Assembly (NCBI GenBank): GCA_017629595.1
Contig: JAGBWW010000068.1
Span: forward strand, 1 to 47,752
Reading direction: 5' to 3'
Length of the DNA stretch: 47,752 nt
Origin: Clostridia bacterium
Lineage (GTDB): Bacteria > Bacillota > Clostridia > Christensenellales > CAG-314
Made by a program: the position numbers and the translations under genes. Below the pieces are notes generated by a model, which saw only the letters and a list, made by a program, of their open reading frames with translations, was not told the origin of the DNA and did no database searches. Within the stretch, counting starts at the first letter, position 1. Every line of letters starts with the position of its first letter. Of the stretch, positions 7,107-29,973 are shown one piece after another.

Positions 7107-7169
7107 TAATAAAAGTTCAATTTTTTCTATAATAAAAACAAAAAAACATATTTTCGGAGGAAAATAAAA

Positions 7170-23402: not shown

Positions 23403-24890
23403 ATGAAAATTGGTTTTGACAGCGACAAATATAAATTGTTGCAATCGCAAAAAATTGAAGAGCGCATTGAGTATTTTGGTGGCAAACTCTATTTGGAGTT
23501 TGGTGGCAAATTGCTTGACGACTTTCATGCAAGCCGAGTTTTACCCGGTTTTTTGCCTGACAGCAAAATTCAAATGTTGGCACACTTGAAAGATTCTGCC
23601 GAAATCGTCGTTGTCGTCAGCGCAAAAGATATCACGGCAAACAAGCTTAGAAGCGACCTTGGAATTACCTATCAAGAAGACGTTTTGCGTATCATTGACC
23701 TTGTTCAAGGTTATGGATTGTACGTATCAGGCGTCGTCATTTCCCACTTCCAACCGGACAATGAACAAGTGCAACACTACATCAAACGTCTTACAAAATT
23801 GGGTATGCCTGTTTACAAACACTATTACATCAAAGGCTATCCCACCGACGTTGAAAAAATTGTTTCGGAAGAAGGCTATGGCAAAAACGATTACATCAAG
23901 ACGACTCGTCCCTTGGTGGTTGTTACAGCCCCCGGTCCCGGTTCGGGCAAAATGGCAACTTGCTTGTCGCAACTTTATCACGATTACAAAAAAGGTATCA
24001 AAGCCGGTTATGCAAAGTTCGAAACCTTCCCCATTTGGAACTTGCCCCTCAACCATTTGGTAAACGTAGCATACGAAGCGGCAACGGCCGACTTGAAAGA
24101 CGTAAACATCATTGACCCTTGGCACTATCAAGCCTATGGCAAAACGGCAATCAACTACAATCGTGACGTGGAAATTTTCCCTGTCTTAAACCATTTGTTC
24201 AAACAACTTATGGGTGGCGAATCCCCTTACAAATCGCCCACCGATATGGGTGTAAATATGGTTGGTTTTTGCATCAGTGACGACCAAGCATGTCAAGAGG
24301 CCGCCCGACACGAAATCGTAAGACGCTACTACAAGGCGGTGGTGGCTCAAAGACGTGGAGCAGACAACGAAGGCGAATTGGAAAAAATCAATTTGATTAT
24401 GCACAATTTCTCCATTGACAAACACGATTTGCCCGTTGCTCGTGTTGCAAACCAATATCGTGAAAAAAACGGTGTGTCGGCAGCAGCAATTGAACTTGCC
24501 GACGGAACAATTGTCACAGGTAAAAAATCCGACCTTATTGGTTGTGCATCGGCAGTACTTCTCAACGCGTTAAAGACGTTGGCAGGCGTGAACGATTCGG
24601 TAAAACTTATTCCCCACTCGTCCTTTGAACCTATTCAAAATCTCAAAACGCAATATTTAGGAAGTTTCAACCCTCGCCTTCACACGGACGAATGTCTTAT
24701 TGCCCTTTCCATTACGGCATTGACCGACCCCGTTGCACAAAAAGTAATTCAACAATTGCCAAAGCTTAAAGGTTGCCAAGTGCATACCACCGACATTTTG
24801 TCCCCCGTTGACGAAAAGGTATTTAGAAAGTTGGGAATGTACTTAACAAGCGAACCTACTTACAGCACTAAAAAACTTTTCCACAATTAA
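23403..24890 (+). CDS. DUF1846 / UPF0371 family protein
   Basis: 495 aa. The N-terminus KLYLEFGGKLLDDFHASRVLPGF matches the streptococcal UPF0371 family signature. GGGGAGG RBS. Confidence 0.85.
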   Translation: MKIGFDSDKYKLLQSQKIEERIEYFGGKLYLEFGGKLLDDFHASRVLPGFLPDSKIQMLAHLKDSAEIVVVVSAKDITANKLRSDLGITYQEDVLRIIDLVQGYGLYVSGVVISHFQPDNEQVQHYIKRLTKLGMPVYKHYYIKGYPTDVEKIVSEEGYGKNDYIKTTRPLVVVTAPGPGSGKMATCLSQLYHDYKKGIKAGYAKFETFPIWNLPLNHLVNVAYEAATADLKDVNIIDPWHYQAYGKTAINYNRDVEIFPVLNHLFKQLMGGESPYKSPTDMGVNMVGFCISDDQACQEAARHEIVRRYYKAVVAQRRGADNEGELEKINLIMHNFSIDKHDLPVARVANQYREKNGVSAAAIELADGTIVTGKKSDLIGCASAVLLNALKTLAGVNDSVKLIPHSSFEPIQNLKTQYLGSFNPRLHTDECLIALSITALTDPVAQKVIQQLPKLKGCQVHTTDILSPVDEKVFRKLGMYLTSEPTYSTKKLFHN

Positions 24891-24910
24891 AAAGAGTAAA
24901 TTGAAACACA

Positions 24911-24946
24911 ACAAGAGCAAAAGAAATTTTGCTCTTGTTTTTTTTG
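24911..24946 (+). terminator. Intrinsic terminator
   Basis: ACAAGAGCAAAA (24911-24922) pairs with TTTTGCTCTTGT (24927-24938): 12-bp stem, GAAA loop, T8. Confidence 0.9.
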
Positions 24947-25015
24947 TGTCAACTTTCAAGCTTTGCAAAAAGAACGTTTAAATTGCAAATATTTACAAAA
25001 AAGTAAACAAGGTTG

Positions 25016-25044
25016 TTGACAAGTTCATTAAAGCAGTTTATACT
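25016..25044 (+). promoter_or_regulatory. Sigma-A promoter of the ABC importer operon
   Basis: TTGACA 25016-25021, 17-nt spacer, TATACT 25039-25044. Confidence 0.7.
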
Positions 25045-25082
25045 ACACTTACTAAACCCGTTACGGGTTAGGAAGGTTAGCT

Positions 25083-25154
25083 ATGAAAACAAATATGGTC
25101 AAATTCGCATTTGCATCTTACTACTATTTTTATTACAGCTTTATTTCGTTGTAA
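25083..25154 (+). CDS. Candidate regulatory leader peptide, 23 aa, Tyr/Phe-rich (MKTNMVKFAFASYYYFYYSFISL)
   Basis: GGAAGG SD at 25071-25076, 6 nt upstream of the ATG. 5 Tyr and 4 Phe in 23 codons, including the run YYYFYY (25119-25136). Embedded in mutually exclusive RNA pairings (see findings). Confidence 0.55.
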   Translation: MKTNMVKFAFASYYYFYYSFISL

Positions 25155-25202
25155 TATGTCTTTGTTGTAGTAAATTTGTTTTCAATTTTAGTTAAATCAA
25201 CG

Positions 25203-25236
25203 TACCGCAACAAAAAGAGTGTTGTGGTATTTTTTT
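25203..25236 (+). terminator. Leader (attenuator) intrinsic terminator upstream of the importer genes
   Basis: TACCGCAACA (25203-25212) pairs with TGTTGTGGTA (25220-25229): 10 bp with one G-U pair, 7-nt loop, T7 run at 25230-25236. Lies 43 nt upstream of the ATG at 25279. Confidence 0.75.
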
Positions 25237-25278
25237 ATTTCAACCTCTTTTTGAAAAAGAGTTTTGGAGGAAAGAATT

Positions 25279-26259
25279 ATGAAAAAATTGTTAGCAGTTA
25301 TTTTGGCAGTAGTTTTGGCTTTGTCCGTAACAACGTTGGTGGCATGTCAACCAACGGCAGATATCAACGTCGGCATTTTGCAAGTTGCCACGCACACAGC
25401 ATTGGACGGCGCAAGACAAGGCTTCAAAGAAGTTGTTCAAGCTTGGGCAGATGAAGTCGGAAAGACGGTTGCCTTCCACGAACAAAATGCAAACGGCGAT
25501 CCCAACAATGAAACTACTTTGGCACAAACGCTCGTTGCACAAAATCACGATCTTTTGTTGGGCATTGCAACGTCTTCTGCACAAGCATTGTACAGCAACA
25601 CGCAAAGCATTCCCGTTTTGTACACGGCAGTTACCAACCCTGCAGTTGACTTGGCAGGTTTGGGCACAATTCAAGGTGTAAGTGATATGAACCCCGTTGC
25701 ACAACAAATTCAATTGGTAAAAACCGTTGTTGAAGCAATGCACCCCGAAAAAGAAACAATCAAATTGGCATTTGTTTTTAACGGCAGTGAAACAAACTCT
25801 CTTGAACAAGTAAACCTTGCAAAGGCAGAATGTGCTCGTTTGGGTGGTTTTACCACGGTTGACGTTACGGCAAGTTCTTCCAACGATATTGCAACGGCAT
25901 TGGCAAGCAATCAAATGCAAGCCGTAGATTGCATTTACGTTCCCACAGACAACTTGATGGCAGAAAATATGAACATCATTTACGCATACTCCACACCCAA
26001 CAATATTCCCGTGATTTGTGGCGAATCCGGTATGTGTGATGCTGGCGAAGGTACGGCAACGTTTGGTATTGACTACTATTTGTTGGGTCAACAAGTAGGC
26101 GAAATGGCAATTGAAATTTTGGAAGGCAAAACCTTGGACAATCCTAACCAATTTTACACTCGTCAATGTGAATTTTTCATCAATGAAGAAAATGCACTTG
26201 CAATGGGTATGACACAAACACAAATTGACCAAATCAAAGACGCATTTCAAGGGGAATAA
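25279..26259 (+). CDS. ABC importer substrate-binding lipoprotein (COG2984/ABC_sub_bind; putative Trp/Tyr TrpX-type)
   Basis: ATG at 25279 behind GGAGG. Signal peptide with lipobox LVAC. VGILQVATHTALDGARQGF is the family signature. Confidence 0.85.
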   Translation: MKKLLAVILAVVLALSVTTLVACQPTADINVGILQVATHTALDGARQGFKEVVQAWADEVGKTVAFHEQNANGDPNNETTLAQTLVAQNHDLLLGIATSSAQALYSNTQSIPVLYTAVTNPAVDLAGLGTIQGVSDMNPVAQQIQLVKTVVEAMHPEKETIKLAFVFNGSETNSLEQVNLAKAECARLGGFTTVDVTASSSNDIATALASNQMQAVDCIYVPTDNLMAENMNIIYAYSTPNNIPVICGESGMCDAGEGTATFGIDYYLLGQQVGEMAIEILEGKTLDNPNQFYTRQCEFFINEENALAMGMTQTQIDQIKDAFQGE

Positions 26260-26265
26260 TTTTTT

Positions 26266-27198
26266 ATGGCACAATTTCTAAATGCATCGGTCGGTGGCAT
26301 TTCGCTCGGTCTTATTTGGGGCGTGCTTGCCGTCGGCGTATATTTGACCTATCGCATATTGGACTTTGCCGACCTTACCGTTGACAGTTCTTTGGCAACG
26401 GGTGGTGTTGTTACTGCGGTGCTTATTGCAAACGGTTGCACACCAATTTTGGCTTTGTTGGCATCATGTCTTGCAGGTTCTTGTGCAGGACTTATTACGG
26501 CATTGCTCAACACAAAACTCAAAATTCCTGCAATTTTGGCGGGTATTTTGACAATGTCGGCACTTTATTCCATCAATTTGAAAATACTTGGCAACCGTGC
26601 CAACGTATCTTTCTTTGGCAAACCCACAATCAACGGCTATTGGGCAGACCTTTTCAACTTGTCTTTGATTGACGACAAAAACGTACTTAGCATCATCACC
26701 TGCGTGATTGTTTGCAGTGCAGTAGTCGGTTTTTTGTATTGGTTTTTCGGTACGGAATTTGGTTGCTCGGTACGTGCAACAGGTTTCAACAGTACGATGG
26801 CAAAAGCACAAGGTATCAACACCGATTTGACCAAAATCGTTTGCCTTATGATAAGCAACGGCTTGGCAGGTTTGGCAGGTGGCTTGTTGGCACAACACAA
26901 CCAAAGTGGTGACGTCAATATGGGTACAGGCACCATCGTCATTGGCTTGGCATCGGTAATTTTGGCAGAAACGGTAATTCGTGATAGATTTTCTTTCTGG
27001 CTTAAACTTGCATTGGTTGTTTTGGGAAGCGTTGCCTATCGTTTGATTTTCACCTTTGCAGTTCAAATGGGCATGCACACAAACGACCTAAAACTTGTTG
27101 CCACGGCAATCATCGTAATTGCTTTGACGGTACCTTTGATTAAGAAAAAAATTGCACACAAAAAATTGAAAGGAGGTTTGAACAATGTTAAAAATTGA
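26266..27198 (+). CDS. ABC importer permease (COG4120, TrpY-type)
   Basis: 310 aa, about 8-9 TM segments, directly downstream of the binding protein. Confidence 0.85.
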   Translation: MAQFLNASVGGISLGLIWGVLAVGVYLTYRILDFADLTVDSSLATGGVVTAVLIANGCTPILALLASCLAGSCAGLITALLNTKLKIPAILAGILTMSALYSINLKILGNRANVSFFGKPTINGYWADLFNLSLIDDKNVLSIITCVIVCSAVVGFLYWFFGTEFGCSVRATGFNSTMAKAQGINTDLTKIVCLMISNGLAGLAGGLLAQHNQSGDVNMGTGTIVIGLASVILAETVIRDRFSFWLKLALVVLGSVAYRLIFTFAVQMGMHTNDLKLVATAIIVIALTVPLIKKKIAHKKLKGGLNNVKN

Positions 27199-27976
27199 AA
27201 ACCTCACAAAGATATTTAACGTCGGCGAAACAACGGAAAAAACGGCACTCAACAACGTCAGTTTGACTTTGGAAGAAGGCGATTTTCTCACCATAATTGG
27301 TGGCAACGGTGCAGGTAAATCTACTTTGCTCAACTGCATTTCCGGAGTATTGTCCGTTGACAATGGCACAATCAGTTTGGACGGAGAAGACGTCACTCAT
27401 CTTGCCGAATACAAACGAGCAAAATACGTCAGCCGTGTTTTCCAAAATCCACTGGATGGCACAGCAGGTGGCATGAACATTGAAGAAAACCTTGCATTAG
27501 CCTTCCGTCGTGGCAAAAAACGTGGTTTGGGCTGGGGAATAACCAAGGAAGAAAGAGTGCTTTTTCACAAACTTTTGTCTGAAACAGGTTTGGGCTTGGA
27601 ATCTCTTATGGCACAAAAAGTTTCCACGTTGTCGGGTGGCCAACGTCAAAGTTTGGCACTTATTATGGCAGTTTTGGTGCAACCCAAAATTTTGTTGTTG
27701 GATGAACACACGGCAGCGCTTGACCCCAAAACGGCAAAAACGGTTTTGGAATTGACGCAAAAATTCACAAAAGACAGCAAATTCATCACAATTATGGTAA
27801 CTCACAATATGAACGATGCCATCAAAATCGGCAACAAACTTGTTATGATGAACCAAGGCAACGTTGTTTTCCAAGCAAGTGGCCAAGAAAAACAAAACCT
27901 CAAAGTGGTGGATCTCATTTCCAAGTTTTCCGAAGTTGGCGCAGAACTCAACGATAGAATTTTGCTCAACAGCTAA
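27185..27976 (+). CDS. ABC importer ATP-binding protein (COG1101, TrpZ-type)
   Basis: Walker A GGNGAGKST, signature LSGGQRQS, Walker B ILLLDEHTAALD. Overlaps the end of the permease gene. Confidence 0.9.
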   Translation: MLKIENLTKIFNVGETTEKTALNNVSLTLEEGDFLTIIGGNGAGKSTLLNCISGVLSVDNGTISLDGEDVTHLAEYKRAKYVSRVFQNPLDGTAGGMNIEENLALAFRRGKKRGLGWGITKEERVLFHKLLSETGLGLESLMAQKVSTLSGGQRQSLALIMAVLVQPKILLLDEHTAALDPKTAKTVLELTQKFTKDSKFITIMVTHNMNDAIKIGNKLVMMNQGNVVFQASGQEKQNLKVVDLISKFSEVGAELNDRILLNS

Positions 27977-28000
27977 CAATTCTTTTTCTCAATACACTTA

Positions 28001-28032
28001 CAGCCGTCACAAAAGTGACGGCTGTTTTTTTT
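28001..28032 (+). terminator. Intrinsic terminator of the importer operon
   Basis: CAGCCGTCAC (28001-28010) pairs with GTGACGGCTG (28015-28024), AAAA loop, T8. Confidence 0.9.
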
Positions 28033-28068
28033 AGTTTAAACGTGATGTAAGTTAATTATTTTTATATA

Positions 28069-28096
28069 TTGAAAAATATTTAACCTGTGGTATAAT
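28069..28096 (+). promoter_or_regulatory. Promoter of the two-component operon
   Basis: TTGAAA 28069-28074, 16-nt spacer, extended -10 element TGGTATAAT ending at 28096. Confidence 0.55.
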
Positions 28097-28115
28097 AGCA
28101 TCAAGGAGAAGTCCA

Positions 28116-28793
28116 ATGAAAGTTTTGATTATTGACGATGAAAAACAACTCGTTTCGGCGTTGACAGCCATTTTCAACAAAAATCAAATAACAACCGACT
28201 GTGCTTACGATGGCGAAGAAGGATTGGAATACGTTTTGACTCAATTATACGACGTAATTGTTTTGGACGTTATGCTTCCCAAACTCAATGGCTTTGAAGT
28301 GCTTAAAAAGATGCGACAAAAGGGCATTTCAACACCCGTTTTGCTGTTGTCGGCAAAAAGTGAAACGGCAGACAAAATTGAAGGTTTGGAAACGGGTGCC
28401 GACGATTACCTTACAAAACCTTTTGACAGCAGAGAGTTGATTGCTCGTATCAAAGCATTGACAAGGCGCAAAGGGGCGTTTTTTGGCAACGATTTGTCAT
28501 TTGGCGATTTGGTGCTTAACACCGACACGCACAAACTCAGTTGTGGAAACAAAGATATTTCTTTAGGAAGCAAAGAATATCAAATTATGGAAATGCTGTT
28601 GCGCAACACAGAAAGAATAATATCAAAAGACCTTATCATTGAAAAAGTGTGGGGTTTTGATTCGGAAGTGGAATACAACAACGTAGAAGTCTATCTTTCC
28701 TTTTTGCGTCGCAAATTGACTTCACTATCAAGCAAGGTTGTTATTCGCCCCATAAGAAGTGTGGGCTATAAATTGGAACTAGAAAATGATTGA
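28116..28793 (+). CDS. OmpR-family response regulator
   Basis: 225 aa. Receiver domain (VIVLDVMLPKLNG) plus winged-helix C-terminus (VRSVGYKL). AAGGAG RBS. Confidence 0.9.
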   Translation: MKVLIIDDEKQLVSALTAIFNKNQITTDCAYDGEEGLEYVLTQLYDVIVLDVMLPKLNGFEVLKKMRQKGISTPVLLLSAKSETADKIEGLETGADDYLTKPFDSRELIARIKALTRRKGAFFGNDLSFGDLVLNTDTHKLSCGNKDISLGSKEYQIMEMLLRNTERIISKDLIIEKVWGFDSEVEYNNVEVYLSFLRRKLTSLSSKVVIRPIRSVGYKLELEND

Positions 28794-29973
28794 AAAAACT
28801 AGAAAAAAATTTGTATGGTTGACAATGTGTCTATTGGCAGTCGTTTTTTCAGCCCTTTTGTTGGGTACAAGTGCCAGTGTATACGTTATGTTTAATTACG
28901 GCATGTCGCAAAATTTGCAAGAACGTGCCGAGTTCGTTTTTGAAACGGGTTCGGCAGAACTTGGCGTGGAACAATTTGATTTGGCAGACGAAGCGCGAAC
29001 GTTTATTGCCACAAAGTCCGTTGACGGCGAGTGGGAATTGTCCTTTTCAAACGACTTTTTTGAGCAAGAAGAAGTGGAAAGGTATTTGACGAAAATTGTA
29101 CAAAATAAGAAGAACCGTGGTCATATAAACGAATTGTATTTTATCAAACAAACTCAAGGGTCGCAAACTGTTGTCGTCGGCATAGACACTTCCTTTGAAT
29201 TGATACAATTTGGCCGAATTGTGTCTTTGGGCGCAATAATGGTTGTGCTTTCTCTTTTGCTTTTGTACGTTATTGTAACGATGGTTTCGTGGTGGATAAT
29301 ACGGCCTCTTTCAACGGCGTTTACCAAGCAAAAGCAGTTTGTTTCTGATGCAAGTCACGAACTTAAAACACCCCTTACCATTATCAATGCAAACGTAGAT
29401 GCTCTGTGCAGTGACGTGGGCGAAAACAAGTGGACGGAAAACATTTTGTCCCAAACAAGACGTATGAACGGGCTTGTAGTGGACATGCTTGCTTTGGCAA
29501 AATTAGAAGAAGAACAACCGCCCAAAAGTCACAAATTTGACATGTCGTCAACAATCAAAAACACCTTGTTGTCCTTTGAATCGGTTGCCTTTGAAAAGGG
29601 AAAAACGCTTGAAATAGATGTGGAAGAAGGCGTTGAATTTGTTGGCGCAGAACAAGAAGTGCAACAAGTTGTTGCCATTTTGTGCGACAACGCCATAAAA
29701 CACGGTGACGAAAAAACCACTATTCGTGCAAATTTTTCCACTCACCCTTTGCGTTTTTCCATTTCCAACAAAGGGACGGATTTTTCCGAAAAAGAAACGC
29801 AAAAAGTATTTGAAAGATTTTGGCGAAGTGACCAATCACGCGACAGAAAAACAGGTGGCAGTGGTTTGGGATTGTCCATTGCAAGGGGGCTTTGCGACAA
29901 AAACAAGTGGAAAATTAAGGCGCAAAGTCAAGAAAACGTAATCACTTTCGTAGTAAATTTTGCCAATAAATAA
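28786..29973 (+). CDS. Sensor histidine kinase (HisKA/HATPase_c, two TM segments)
   Basis: 395 aa. H-box SDASHELKTPLT, N-box DNAIKHG, G-box GGSGLGLSI. Overlaps the response regulator gene by 8 nt. Confidence 0.9.
   Translation: MIEKTRKKFVWLTMCLLAVVFSALLLGTSASVYVMFNYGMSQNLQERAEFVFETGSAELGVEQFDLADEARTFIATKSVDGEWELSFSNDFFEQEEVERYLTKIVQNKKNRGHINELYFIKQTQGSQTVVVGIDTSFELIQFGRIVSLGAIMVVLSLLLLYVIVTMVSWWIIRPLSTAFTKQKQFVSDASHELKTPLTIINANVDALCSDVGENKWTENILSQTRRMNGLVVDMLALAKLEEEQPPKSHKFDMSSTIKNTLLSFESVAFEKGKTLEIDVEEGVEFVGAEQEVQQVVAILCDNAIKHGDEKTTIRANFSTHPLRFSISNKGTDFSEKETQKVFERFWRSDQSRDRKTGGSGLGLSIARGLCDKNKWKIKAQSQENVITFVVNFANK

Follow-up and report, generated by a model that had tools for sequence, protein, structure and literature searches.

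What is a short open reading frame (ORF) rich in tyrosine codons doing between a promoter and the genes of an importer? The question is raised by a stretch of 47,752 nucleotides (the window, called WIN where loci are compared) from a metagenome-assembled genome (MAG) catalogued as 'Clostridia bacterium', in which such an ORF is followed by a transcription terminator and by three genes for an ATP-binding cassette (ABC) importer. Our analysis makes it very probable that this leader is a ribosome-mediated transcription attenuator, keyed to tyrosine or to tyrosine and phenylalanine, that controls the three-gene importer; phenylalanine is proposed as a secondary input. The parts on which the argument turns are the following (MFE, minimum free energy; SBP, substrate-binding lipoprotein).

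25016..25044, + strand: sigma-70-type promoter, with TTGACA at 25016-25021, a 17-nt spacer and TATACT at 25039-25044 (11/12 match)
25071..25076, + strand: Shine-Dalgarno (SD)-like GGAAGG of the leader ORF, 6 nt 5' of the ATG at 25083
25083..25154, + strand: leader peptide ORF of 23 codons, MKTNMVKFAFASYYYFYYSFISL, read from the sequence and its translation
25119..25136, + strand: regulatory codon run TAC TAC TAT TTT TAT TAC (YYYFYY), read from the sequence
25118..25124, + strand: segment 1, UUACUAC (first two Tyr codons), MFE partner of 25167-25173
25163..25173, + strand: segment 2, antiterminator 5' arm, UGUUGUAGUAA, which pairs with 25203-25212
25202..25236, + strand: intrinsic terminator, made of segment 3 (25202-25212), a 7-nt loop, segment 4 (25220-25230) and a U run; 11 pairs, -13.5 kcal/mol
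25279..26259, + strand: SBP, PF04392 (domain match 165 bits), with a Glu249/Tyr266 pocket
26266..27198, + strand: ABC permease, BPD_transp_2 (domain match 103 bits)
27185..27976, + strand: ABC ATPase (domain match 108 bits)

The promoter is the top promoter-like site within 24500-28500, with a predicted transcription start at about 25051, and the ORF, which begins 39 nt past the -10 box, sits between it and the first structural gene. Five of the six codons in the run are tyrosine codons. The genes behind the terminator stand in the order of a TrpXYZ-type (PF04392/COG2984) importer: SBP, then the BPD_transp_2 permease, then the ABC ATPase. A sequence-only reading of this DNA had named a near-consensus promoter at 25016-25044, a 23-codon ORF with a GGAAGG SD and a YYYFYY run, a strong intrinsic terminator and a TrpXYZ-type importer, and all of these are borne out: the promoter match, the ORF and its run can be read directly from the letters, the 11-pair hairpin is followed by a T run to 25236, and the domain matches agree with the importer assignment. 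The same reading had claimed two alternative pairings, which also hold: TGTTGTAGTA (25163-25172) pairs with TACCGCAACA (25203-25212), the terminator 5' arm, in 9 of 10 positions with a duplex energy of -8.0 kcal/mol, and GTAGTAA (25167-25173) is paired with TTACTAC (25118-25124) in the MFE fold. The leader as a whole folds with z = -5.5 relative to dinucleotide shuffles.

Runs of aromatic codons in small ORFs are rare in this DNA. By our Tyr/Phe-run criterion, only 3 of the 445 ATG-initiated ORFs of 10-40 amino acids in the window carry one, and these are two nested ORFs that share the stop codon of the leader (starts at 25083 and 25095) and one ORF of 10 amino acids. The last, MFFCFYYRKN at 7117-7149 on the - strand, is the sole other match in the window and probably a chance one. 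Over 531 kb, both strands included, the criterion picks out 18 of 5690 such ORFs, and 14 of the 18 sit 159-244 nt 5' of an SBP start on the same strand.

The sequence-only reading had suggested a search for aromatic-rich mini-ORFs in orthologous leaders, and that search was positive. It drew on the window, on L001 and on 80 loci from a scan with one genome per GTDB species, together with L162, L163 and L166, which were added by contig look-ups, and it yielded 19 leaders with a Tyr/Phe run (WIN, L001-L012, L033, L034, L062, L162, L163 and L166). All 12 of the closest orthologous importer loci (SBP identity 43-74%; Christensenellaceae and other Clostridia MAGs) share one layout: a promoter, an ORF of 18-24 codons with a Tyr/Phe run, a terminator and the SBP gene. 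Within L002-L012 (43-51% identity; Christensenellaceae and 'Clostridia' MAGs) the ORF has 18-20 codons, carries the run in 11 of 11 cases and ends 99-184 nt 5' of the corrected SBP start; examples of the encoded peptides are MIHSATYYYFYFYFGDLMMR, MAIVKVSYYYYYFYVNLSE, MFTYTYYYYYYIGDLMMR, MLFVGKASYYFYFYRSLS and MKFTCKAHVYFYYFYCSLS. The layout is also found in Anaerofustis stercorihominis (MKRRFFYYYYYYFSPAVECCAANI), in one Eubacteriaceae MAG and in Ruminococcus sp. CAG:382 (MFANRYYYYYYTCAMECFTPAFSK). A TTGACA box stands 5' of all 16 orthologous leaders with printed DNA, and a hairpin with a U run lies 22-54 nt past the stop codon in each of the 16 leaders measured. A metagenome scan with the single SBP gave no relatives; one with the SBP alignment gave 80 loci of at most 43% identity, with the leader in only two (L082 and L101).

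The runs comprise 4-9 codons, always in the frame of an ATG (19/19 leaders), and relatives of the window have up to six consecutive Tyr codons. Across the 19 leaders the runs use TAT 62 times, TAC 23 times, TTT 34 times and TTC 4 times, with synonymous variation between leaders. These leaders fall into at least four sequence groups that are mutually unalignable, and outside the aromatic run the peptides of different groups are unrelated; the design is evidently conserved without conservation of nucleotide sequence between groups. Taken together, recurrence, position, frame and codon variation speak for translation of the ORF by ribosomes and for selection acting on its Tyr/Phe codons.

The support for an antiterminator varies by group. 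In 13 of the 16 leaders tested, segment 3 is a better partner, or nearly so, for the upstream region of its own leader than segments 3 taken from other groups: the rank is 1 in 11 leaders, WIN among them, and 2 and 3 in L033 and L062. When segment 2 of WIN is set against the terminator arms of other leader groups, it likewise ranks 1 of 15. The evidence is strong in group C (L006-L012), in which AGCUACGAU, directly 3' of the stop codon, is the perfect complement of the terminator 5' arm AUCGUAGCU and the 2:3 helix is perfect over 8-9 bp; AGCUACGAU can in part pair with the last ORF codons as well. Groups D and E have segment 2 inside the ORF, just past the Tyr run. The covariation that the sequence-only reading had hoped for is present to some extent in group C, where the consensus fold shows it in the terminator and in a P1-like helix (P1 is described below) that joins early ORF codons with the region past segment 2; it is not seen between WIN and L001.

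Two leader types depart from this pattern. In group B (L002, L004, L005, L162, L163 and L166) the peptide tail G(D/G)L(M/K)MR, which runs up to the stop codon, and a hairpin UGAUGCGGUAAAUGUUAACAGCGUCA across the stop are almost invariant, and the N-terminus and the terminator are variable; this group may work somewhat differently. In L164 and L165, at about 520-640 between tandem SBP paralogues, there is a group-B-like leader remnant with a terminator, in which the aromatic frame (ending in IFYFYYGNDAMQ and a stop) has no ATG, GTG or TTG start past the preceding stop codon. This leader would be either a decaying attenuator or a user of a non-canonical start.

Folding of the window leader adds further elements to the two alternative pairings.

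25055..25069, + strand: 5'-proximal hairpin AACCC-GUUAC-GGGUU, in the MFE folds, directly 5' of the leader SD
25075..25094, + strand: 5' arm of helix P1, spanning part of the SD, the AUG and codons 1-4
25174..25198, + strand: 3' arm of helix P1, directly 3' of segment 2, MFE fold partner of 25075-25094
25131..25156, + strand: inner hairpin of the MFE folds, UAUUACAGC (25131-25139; Tyr codons 5-6 and Ser) with GUUGUAAUA (25148-25156; ORF end and stop)

P1 is a long-range helix of 20 bp that has a pairing probability of 0.98 without a ribosome and is also present in the fold of L001. Its 3' arm would cross the 2:3 helix, so P1 and the 2:3 helix are mutually exclusive in nested folds. The four-segment model of the sequence-only reading is therefore right in its pairings and incomplete as a scheme, as it left out P1, which competes with the antiterminator and buries the SD and AUG of the leader. 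P1 probably blocks the antiterminator while the leader is untranslated; it may then enforce termination, and it may limit re-initiation.

L001, from a Logan assembly, has the closest SBP homologue (74% identity), is syntenic and carries the same leader; the window-type leader is known from these two loci only. Its ORF encodes MKTIISISFAYYYFYYSIITL, with two indels relative to WIN, both of 3 nt, and one Tyr codon is TAT in one locus and TAC in the other. Identity between the two loci is 93% in the promoter and 97% both in the block 25158-25190 (segment 2 and the P1 3' arm) and in the terminator, against 64% in ORF codons 1-12, 54% in the spacer before the terminator, 60% past the terminator and 30-48% in neighbouring intergenic DNA. 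The arms of the inner hairpin are identical and its loop differs, the peptide changing from SFIS to SIIT. At the 5'-proximal hairpin L001 has a CCC/GGG stem with another loop, and group C has an analogous GCGG..CCGC hairpin.

From these parts we propose the following sequence of events. Transcription would start at about 25051 and the 23-codon leader would be translated. When charged tRNA-Tyr is plentiful, the ribosome would pass the YYYFYY run and reach the stop codon, and the leader would refold behind it in three tiers (P1, the 1:2 helix and the inner hairpin, 25131-39/25148-56); segment 3 would then be free for segment 4, and RNA polymerase would terminate in the U run at about 25236. Under a shortage of charged tRNA-Tyr (or tRNA-Phe), the ribosome would stall on the first aromatic codons and mask segment 1, and the freed segment 2, possibly also the GUUGUAAUA copy at the ORF end, would capture segment 3 before segment 4 is made. 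The terminator would thus be prevented and the importer transcribed.

The model was examined by masking a 28-nt ribosome footprint and folding the RNA from the predicted start at 25051, before segment 4 exists. The 1:2 pairing has a probability of 0.84 without a ribosome and of 0.00 with the ribosomal A site on Y13-Y18. For segment 3 the probability of being sequestered is 0.14 without a ribosome. It rises to 0.38 when the A site is on Y13, to 0.45 on Y14 and to 0.70 on Y15, is 0.31 on F16, and is back at 0.14 from Y17 as far as the stop codon. Such a profile fits read-through induced by starvation, the predicted sensing site being the first aromatic codons. The partner of segment 3 is not always the expected one: when the A site is on Y15, the pairing of segment 3 is 70% overall but only 3% with segment 2, and by the MFE structure its partner there appears to be the ORF end with the second GUUGUAAUA copy (25148-25156), which may itself be able to sequester the terminator 5' arm. 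The sequence-only reading had a ribosome at the stop codon occlude segment 2. That part does not hold, as such a ribosome covers no more than the first 2-3 nt; what lets the terminator form in the model, with the ribosome at the stop codon, is that segment 1 is freed and re-pairs with segment 2. Two-ribosome masking, with an initiating ribosome to remove P1, gave position-dependent and inconsistent results.

What the importer carries can be approached through its SBP. Its closest solved relatives are CD0873 of Clostridioides difficile (6HNI, the best match, E = 2.6e-40), VC_1101 (3LKV) and SP1069 (3LFT), which bind Tyr, Phe and Trp, respectively (PMC6816091). In CD0873, Glu263 hydrogen-bonds the tyrosine hydroxyl, Ala taking its place in VC_1101 and SP1069, and Tyr279 excludes tryptophan, Gln taking its place in SP1069 (PMC6816091). 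Alignment to 6HNI puts Glu249 of the window SBP at Glu263 and Tyr266 at Tyr279. Both residues are invariant across 36 homologues, and the Glu/Tyr pair is present in all the Tyr-leader loci aligned (WIN, L001-L012, L033, L034 and L062). CD0873 and the window SBP thus have both specificity residues in common, although the aligned sequences are clearly divergent. The sequence-only reading had predicted Tyr/Phe rather than Trp as substrate, and the pocket, which matches CD0873 and not the Ala/Gln of SP1069, points the same way. It supports placing the window SBP in the tyrosine-binding type, in a CD0873-like subgroup. The same alignment of 36 homologues has Cys23 invariant, presumably as the lipobox cysteine.

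The regulation of orthologous importers bears on the same point. Rfam models were run at gathering score over the whole window and 75 related loci and at E <= 10 over the window leader, and nothing relevant was found on the Tyr leaders. The T-box model (RF00230) has no match in the whole window at gathering score and none at E <= 10 in 24950-25300, and the Rfam Trp_leader, Phe_leader, His_leader, Leu_leader, Thr_leader and leu/phe leader models have none either in the window or in any of 15 orthologous loci with a Tyr leader. The T-box model does match leaders of other orthologues (L047, L050, L065, L077, L079 and L080); T-boxes lie directly 5' of the SBP gene in Eggerthia, Catenibacterium, Massilimicrobiota, another Erysipelotrichaceae genome and an Oscillospiraceae genome.

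L047 2739-2957, L050 2729-2951, L077 1529-1729, L080 2731-2953 and L065 2678-2931: T-boxes directly 5' of SBP genes

In the model alignments the specifier was taken as the codon between GAA and A; it is UAC (Tyr) in L050 and UUC (Phe) in L047, L077, L080 and L065, which further supports the earlier prediction of Tyr/Phe and not Trp. The streptococcal trpXYZ Trp T-box has been experimentally verified (PMC9382623). These T-boxes place the importer family under aromatic tRNA charging control in several lineages, independently of the Tyr leader; to judge from the loci compared, the Tyr-run leader is in the T-box position on this transporter family. Between L050 and L080 the SBP pocket motifs are similar and the T-box specifiers differ by one nucleotide, which suggests that switching between Tyr and Phe T-box control is easy. 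In L072, a Peptococcaceae MAG, a tandem T-box pair lies about 1.5 kb 5' of the SBP match, at a distance at which a link to the SBP gene is not established.

A different leader is found in about 35 Lactobacillaceae orthologues among L013-L074 (Levilactobacillus, Companilactobacillus and Lactiplantibacillus; for example L039 2690-2950). It comprises a promoter, a good SD and an ORF of 20-23 codons with a variable N-terminus, whose end is nucleotide-invariant in ten printed loci (CAA TTT GCC TTT AGC TTT TTC TTT AGA TAG, encoding ..QFAFSFFFR and the stop), and then about 190 nt of conserved hairpins with a terminator. The SBPs of these loci have Ser at the pocket position that is Glu in the Tyr-leader SBPs. 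This element appears to be a leader-peptide attenuator keyed to Phe and placed on the same transporter family. With the L039 leader, RF02863 (Enterococcus sRNA_2410) scores 41.7 bits (E = 1.4e-5), short of its gathering score of 61, and sRNA_2410 may be the leader of the enterococcal orthologue in the form of its attenuated transcript. In L037 (Companilactobacillus mindensis), about five tandem units of about 90 nt (containing cttagcgacttgttcgcttagaaagtgttatggggtcgctttagcgaccgtaaaccgagaa) lie between the leader terminator and the SBP start, at about 2500-2990, and they place the leader more than 500 nt from the gene.

How well, then, does a tyrosine-keyed attenuator account for the window leader? 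It has the parts that define the class: a leader ORF, a cluster of codons, an intrinsic terminator, an exclusive antiterminator and an anti-antiterminator over the regulatory codons, the last being the 1:2 helix, whose outcome is complicated by P1. Directly observed are the layout of the parts and its conservation, an aromatic run that is in frame, a terminator, complementarities that allow alternative pairing and a pocket of the Tyr type; translation of the leader ORF, ribosome stalling, the direction of regulation and all of the kinetics are what we infer from them. Several observations weigh against this account. The SD is mediocre (GGAAGG; in L001 the weaker GGACGG) and almost absent in some group C leaders. 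The full-length MFE fold always retains the terminator. In an equilibrium model with one ribosome, P1 closes again behind a ribosome stalled on Y13/Y14 and keeps the specific 2:3 pairing at about 0.3. The decision must accordingly be kinetic or need a second ribosome on the AUG. Shuffles of the single sequence equal the 2:3 helix in 98 of 2000 cases and the 1:2 helix in 128 of 2000 (p about 0.05-0.06), and these modest statistics leave the comparative data to carry the weight. WIN and L001 have no compensatory changes in any helix, the arms being invariant, and neither a duplex search nor RNAalifold found a convincing antiterminator in group B (tail GDLMMR). Finally, the Glu pocket is also found in SBPs behind UUC (Phe) T-boxes, so Glu is no guarantee of Tyr-only specificity or regulation; together with the interspersed Phe codons, these SBPs leave a role for phenylalanine open.

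Among other explanations, the one that survives best, although we think it improbable, is a protein- or factor-dependent attenuator in which a TRAP-like protein or a ligand reads the UAY/UUU triplet repeats and the ORF is incidental. It would account for the weak SDs of several leaders and for the presence of the aromatic codons themselves in the pairing segments (UACUAC with GUAGUA), triplet repeats being the targets of TRAP-type proteins. Against it, all 19 leaders have an ATG 5' of the run in the Tyr/Phe frame, whereas none of the 19 has one in frame +1 and 3 have one in frame +2, and a stop codon always follows within 1-12 codons. In the same sense, the indels between the WIN and L001 ORFs are both multiples of 3, TAT, TAC, TTT and TTC are mixed in the runs without a fixed RNA repeat unit, and groups with wholly different RNA retain only the encoded Tyr/Phe run.

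If the ORF is translated, it might still sense something other than tRNA charging. In a TnaC-like arrangement the nascent peptide would sense free tyrosine, and an excess of tyrosine would stall the ribosome and switch the importer on. Such substrate induction is conceivable in gut Clostridia, which ferment tyrosine, to p-cresol in the case of C. difficile (PMC6816091), and group B does conserve a peptide tail, GDLMMR. What all groups have in common, by contrast, is the codon run and no peptide motif. Orthologous operons are under T-boxes, which respond to uncharged tRNA and hence to shortage (PMC9382623), and a run laid over segment 1 ahead of an intrinsic terminator is the geometry of starvation-type attenuators. 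We regard nascent-peptide sensing as slightly less probable still than a factor that reads the repeats.

Much the same small chance is given to the idea that the ORF encodes a real hydrophobic micro-protein, such as a membrane protein or accessory subunit of the transporter, followed by an ordinary leaky terminator. By our own assessment, a hydrophobic peptide of 18-24 residues would amount to about one membrane-spanning helix, and it always adjoins a membrane transporter; yet the peptides are unrelated between groups beyond the aromatic run, the terminator stands between the ORF and the genes served, the alternative pairings involve the ORF itself, and the non-coding leader parts (97%) are better conserved than ORF codons 1-12 (64%). 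A chance ORF in AT-rich intergenic DNA beside an unrelated terminator, to which the weak single-sequence helix statistics might lend something, is refuted for practical purposes by the presence of the feature at the same position in 19 loci and its near absence elsewhere.

Ribosome-mediated attenuation keyed to tyrosine is thus the account that we retain for the window leader. We also lean, with some reserve, towards a broader view: that Tyr-run leader peptides are a recurrent class of tyrosine sensor on this importer family, in the place of the T-box and probably with several independent origins (in Christensenellales-like Clostridia, in Anaerofustis/Eubacteriaceae and in an Oscillospirales lineage); that with the Phe-run leader of Lactobacillaceae and the Phe/Tyr/Trp T-boxes they make at least three devices for sensing tRNA charging on one transporter family; and that the codons track the pocket residue, Tyr runs going with Glu and Phe runs with Ser. 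If this is true, leader composition could predict substrates for uncultured gut bacteria.

Between the leader terminator and the SBP start of the window, an SD-sequestering hairpin does no better than shuffles. The operon itself is closed by a second, strong terminator.

28000..28025, + strand: operon-end terminator, 11 pairs (7 G-C), then T8

An OmpR-type response regulator and a histidine kinase (28116-29973) lie 3' of the importer operon, and this synteny is also found in L001.

The interest of the leader lies in the amino acid that it would sense. Tyrosine sensing relies on the TyrR repressor in Escherichia coli and on T-boxes in Firmicutes. Tyrosine has so far been the odd one out among the amino acids sensed by leader peptides: the sole Tyr-containing leader that we found, aroR (discussed below), is described as unresponsive to Tyr in the secondary account of it. 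A conserved run of up to six Tyr codons before a Tyr-type importer would be a clean case. It would also add a documented leader peptide standing where related Firmicutes have a T-box, and it would assign a substrate and a mode of regulation to a transporter of poorly cultured gut Clostridia (Christensenellaceae and relatives). Tyrosine uptake by the homologue of C. difficile matters for p-cresol production and for colonisation (PMC6816091).

A literature search in which subscription journals were poorly covered brought up neither a Tyr-run leader nor a case of this importer under leader-peptide control. Several known systems are nevertheless close. The E. coli leaders pheL-pheA and trpL-trpEDCBA likewise have a short ORF in which codons of the amino acid to be sensed form a run, 1:2, 2:3 and 3:4 helices that overlap, and an intrinsic terminator, and in them stalling favours the antiterminator, as proposed here. 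The WIN leader differs in that it has no sequence or covariance-model similarity to them, has Tyr codons with Phe interspersed, serves an importer and not a biosynthetic operon, belongs to a Clostridia MAG and has an additional helix that buries the SD and AUG. The aroR-aroF leader of Corynebacterium glutamicum, as far as it is described in the secondary account, shares with WIN a leader peptide with Tyr and Phe codons, ribosome stalling and an aromatic target gene; it has only a Phe-Tyr-Phe triplet and is reported to respond to limitation of Phe, not of Tyr (Neshat et al. 2014, via PMC11802643). Its target, on the same account, is biosynthesis and that of WIN import, and the phylum differs.

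The T-box trpXYZ of Streptococcus suis and S. pneumoniae (PMC9382623) has the same transporter family, the same position, the same terminator/antiterminator output and the same tRNA-charging signal; its sensor is the pairing of RNA with tRNA at the specifier, whereas that of the WIN leader would be the translating ribosome. Other leader peptides of Firmicutes and Mollicutes, such as the leucine-rich attenuator peptide of Staphylococcus aureus ilvBNC (PMC5794164), the His leaders 5' of hisS paralogues in bacilli (PMC2965389) and the Phe uORF uORFC-13-1 5' of aroF in Acholeplasma (PMC8632094), indicate that the mechanism exists outside Proteobacteria and Actinobacteria and can replace T-boxes. 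They concern other amino acids and targets, have no tyrosine run and do not stand on this transporter. The mechanism is classical (trpL, pheL and hisL), and the advance is therefore one of scope and not of principle: what is new is the specificity, the target and the taxonomic setting, which make the leader a new family built on a known principle.

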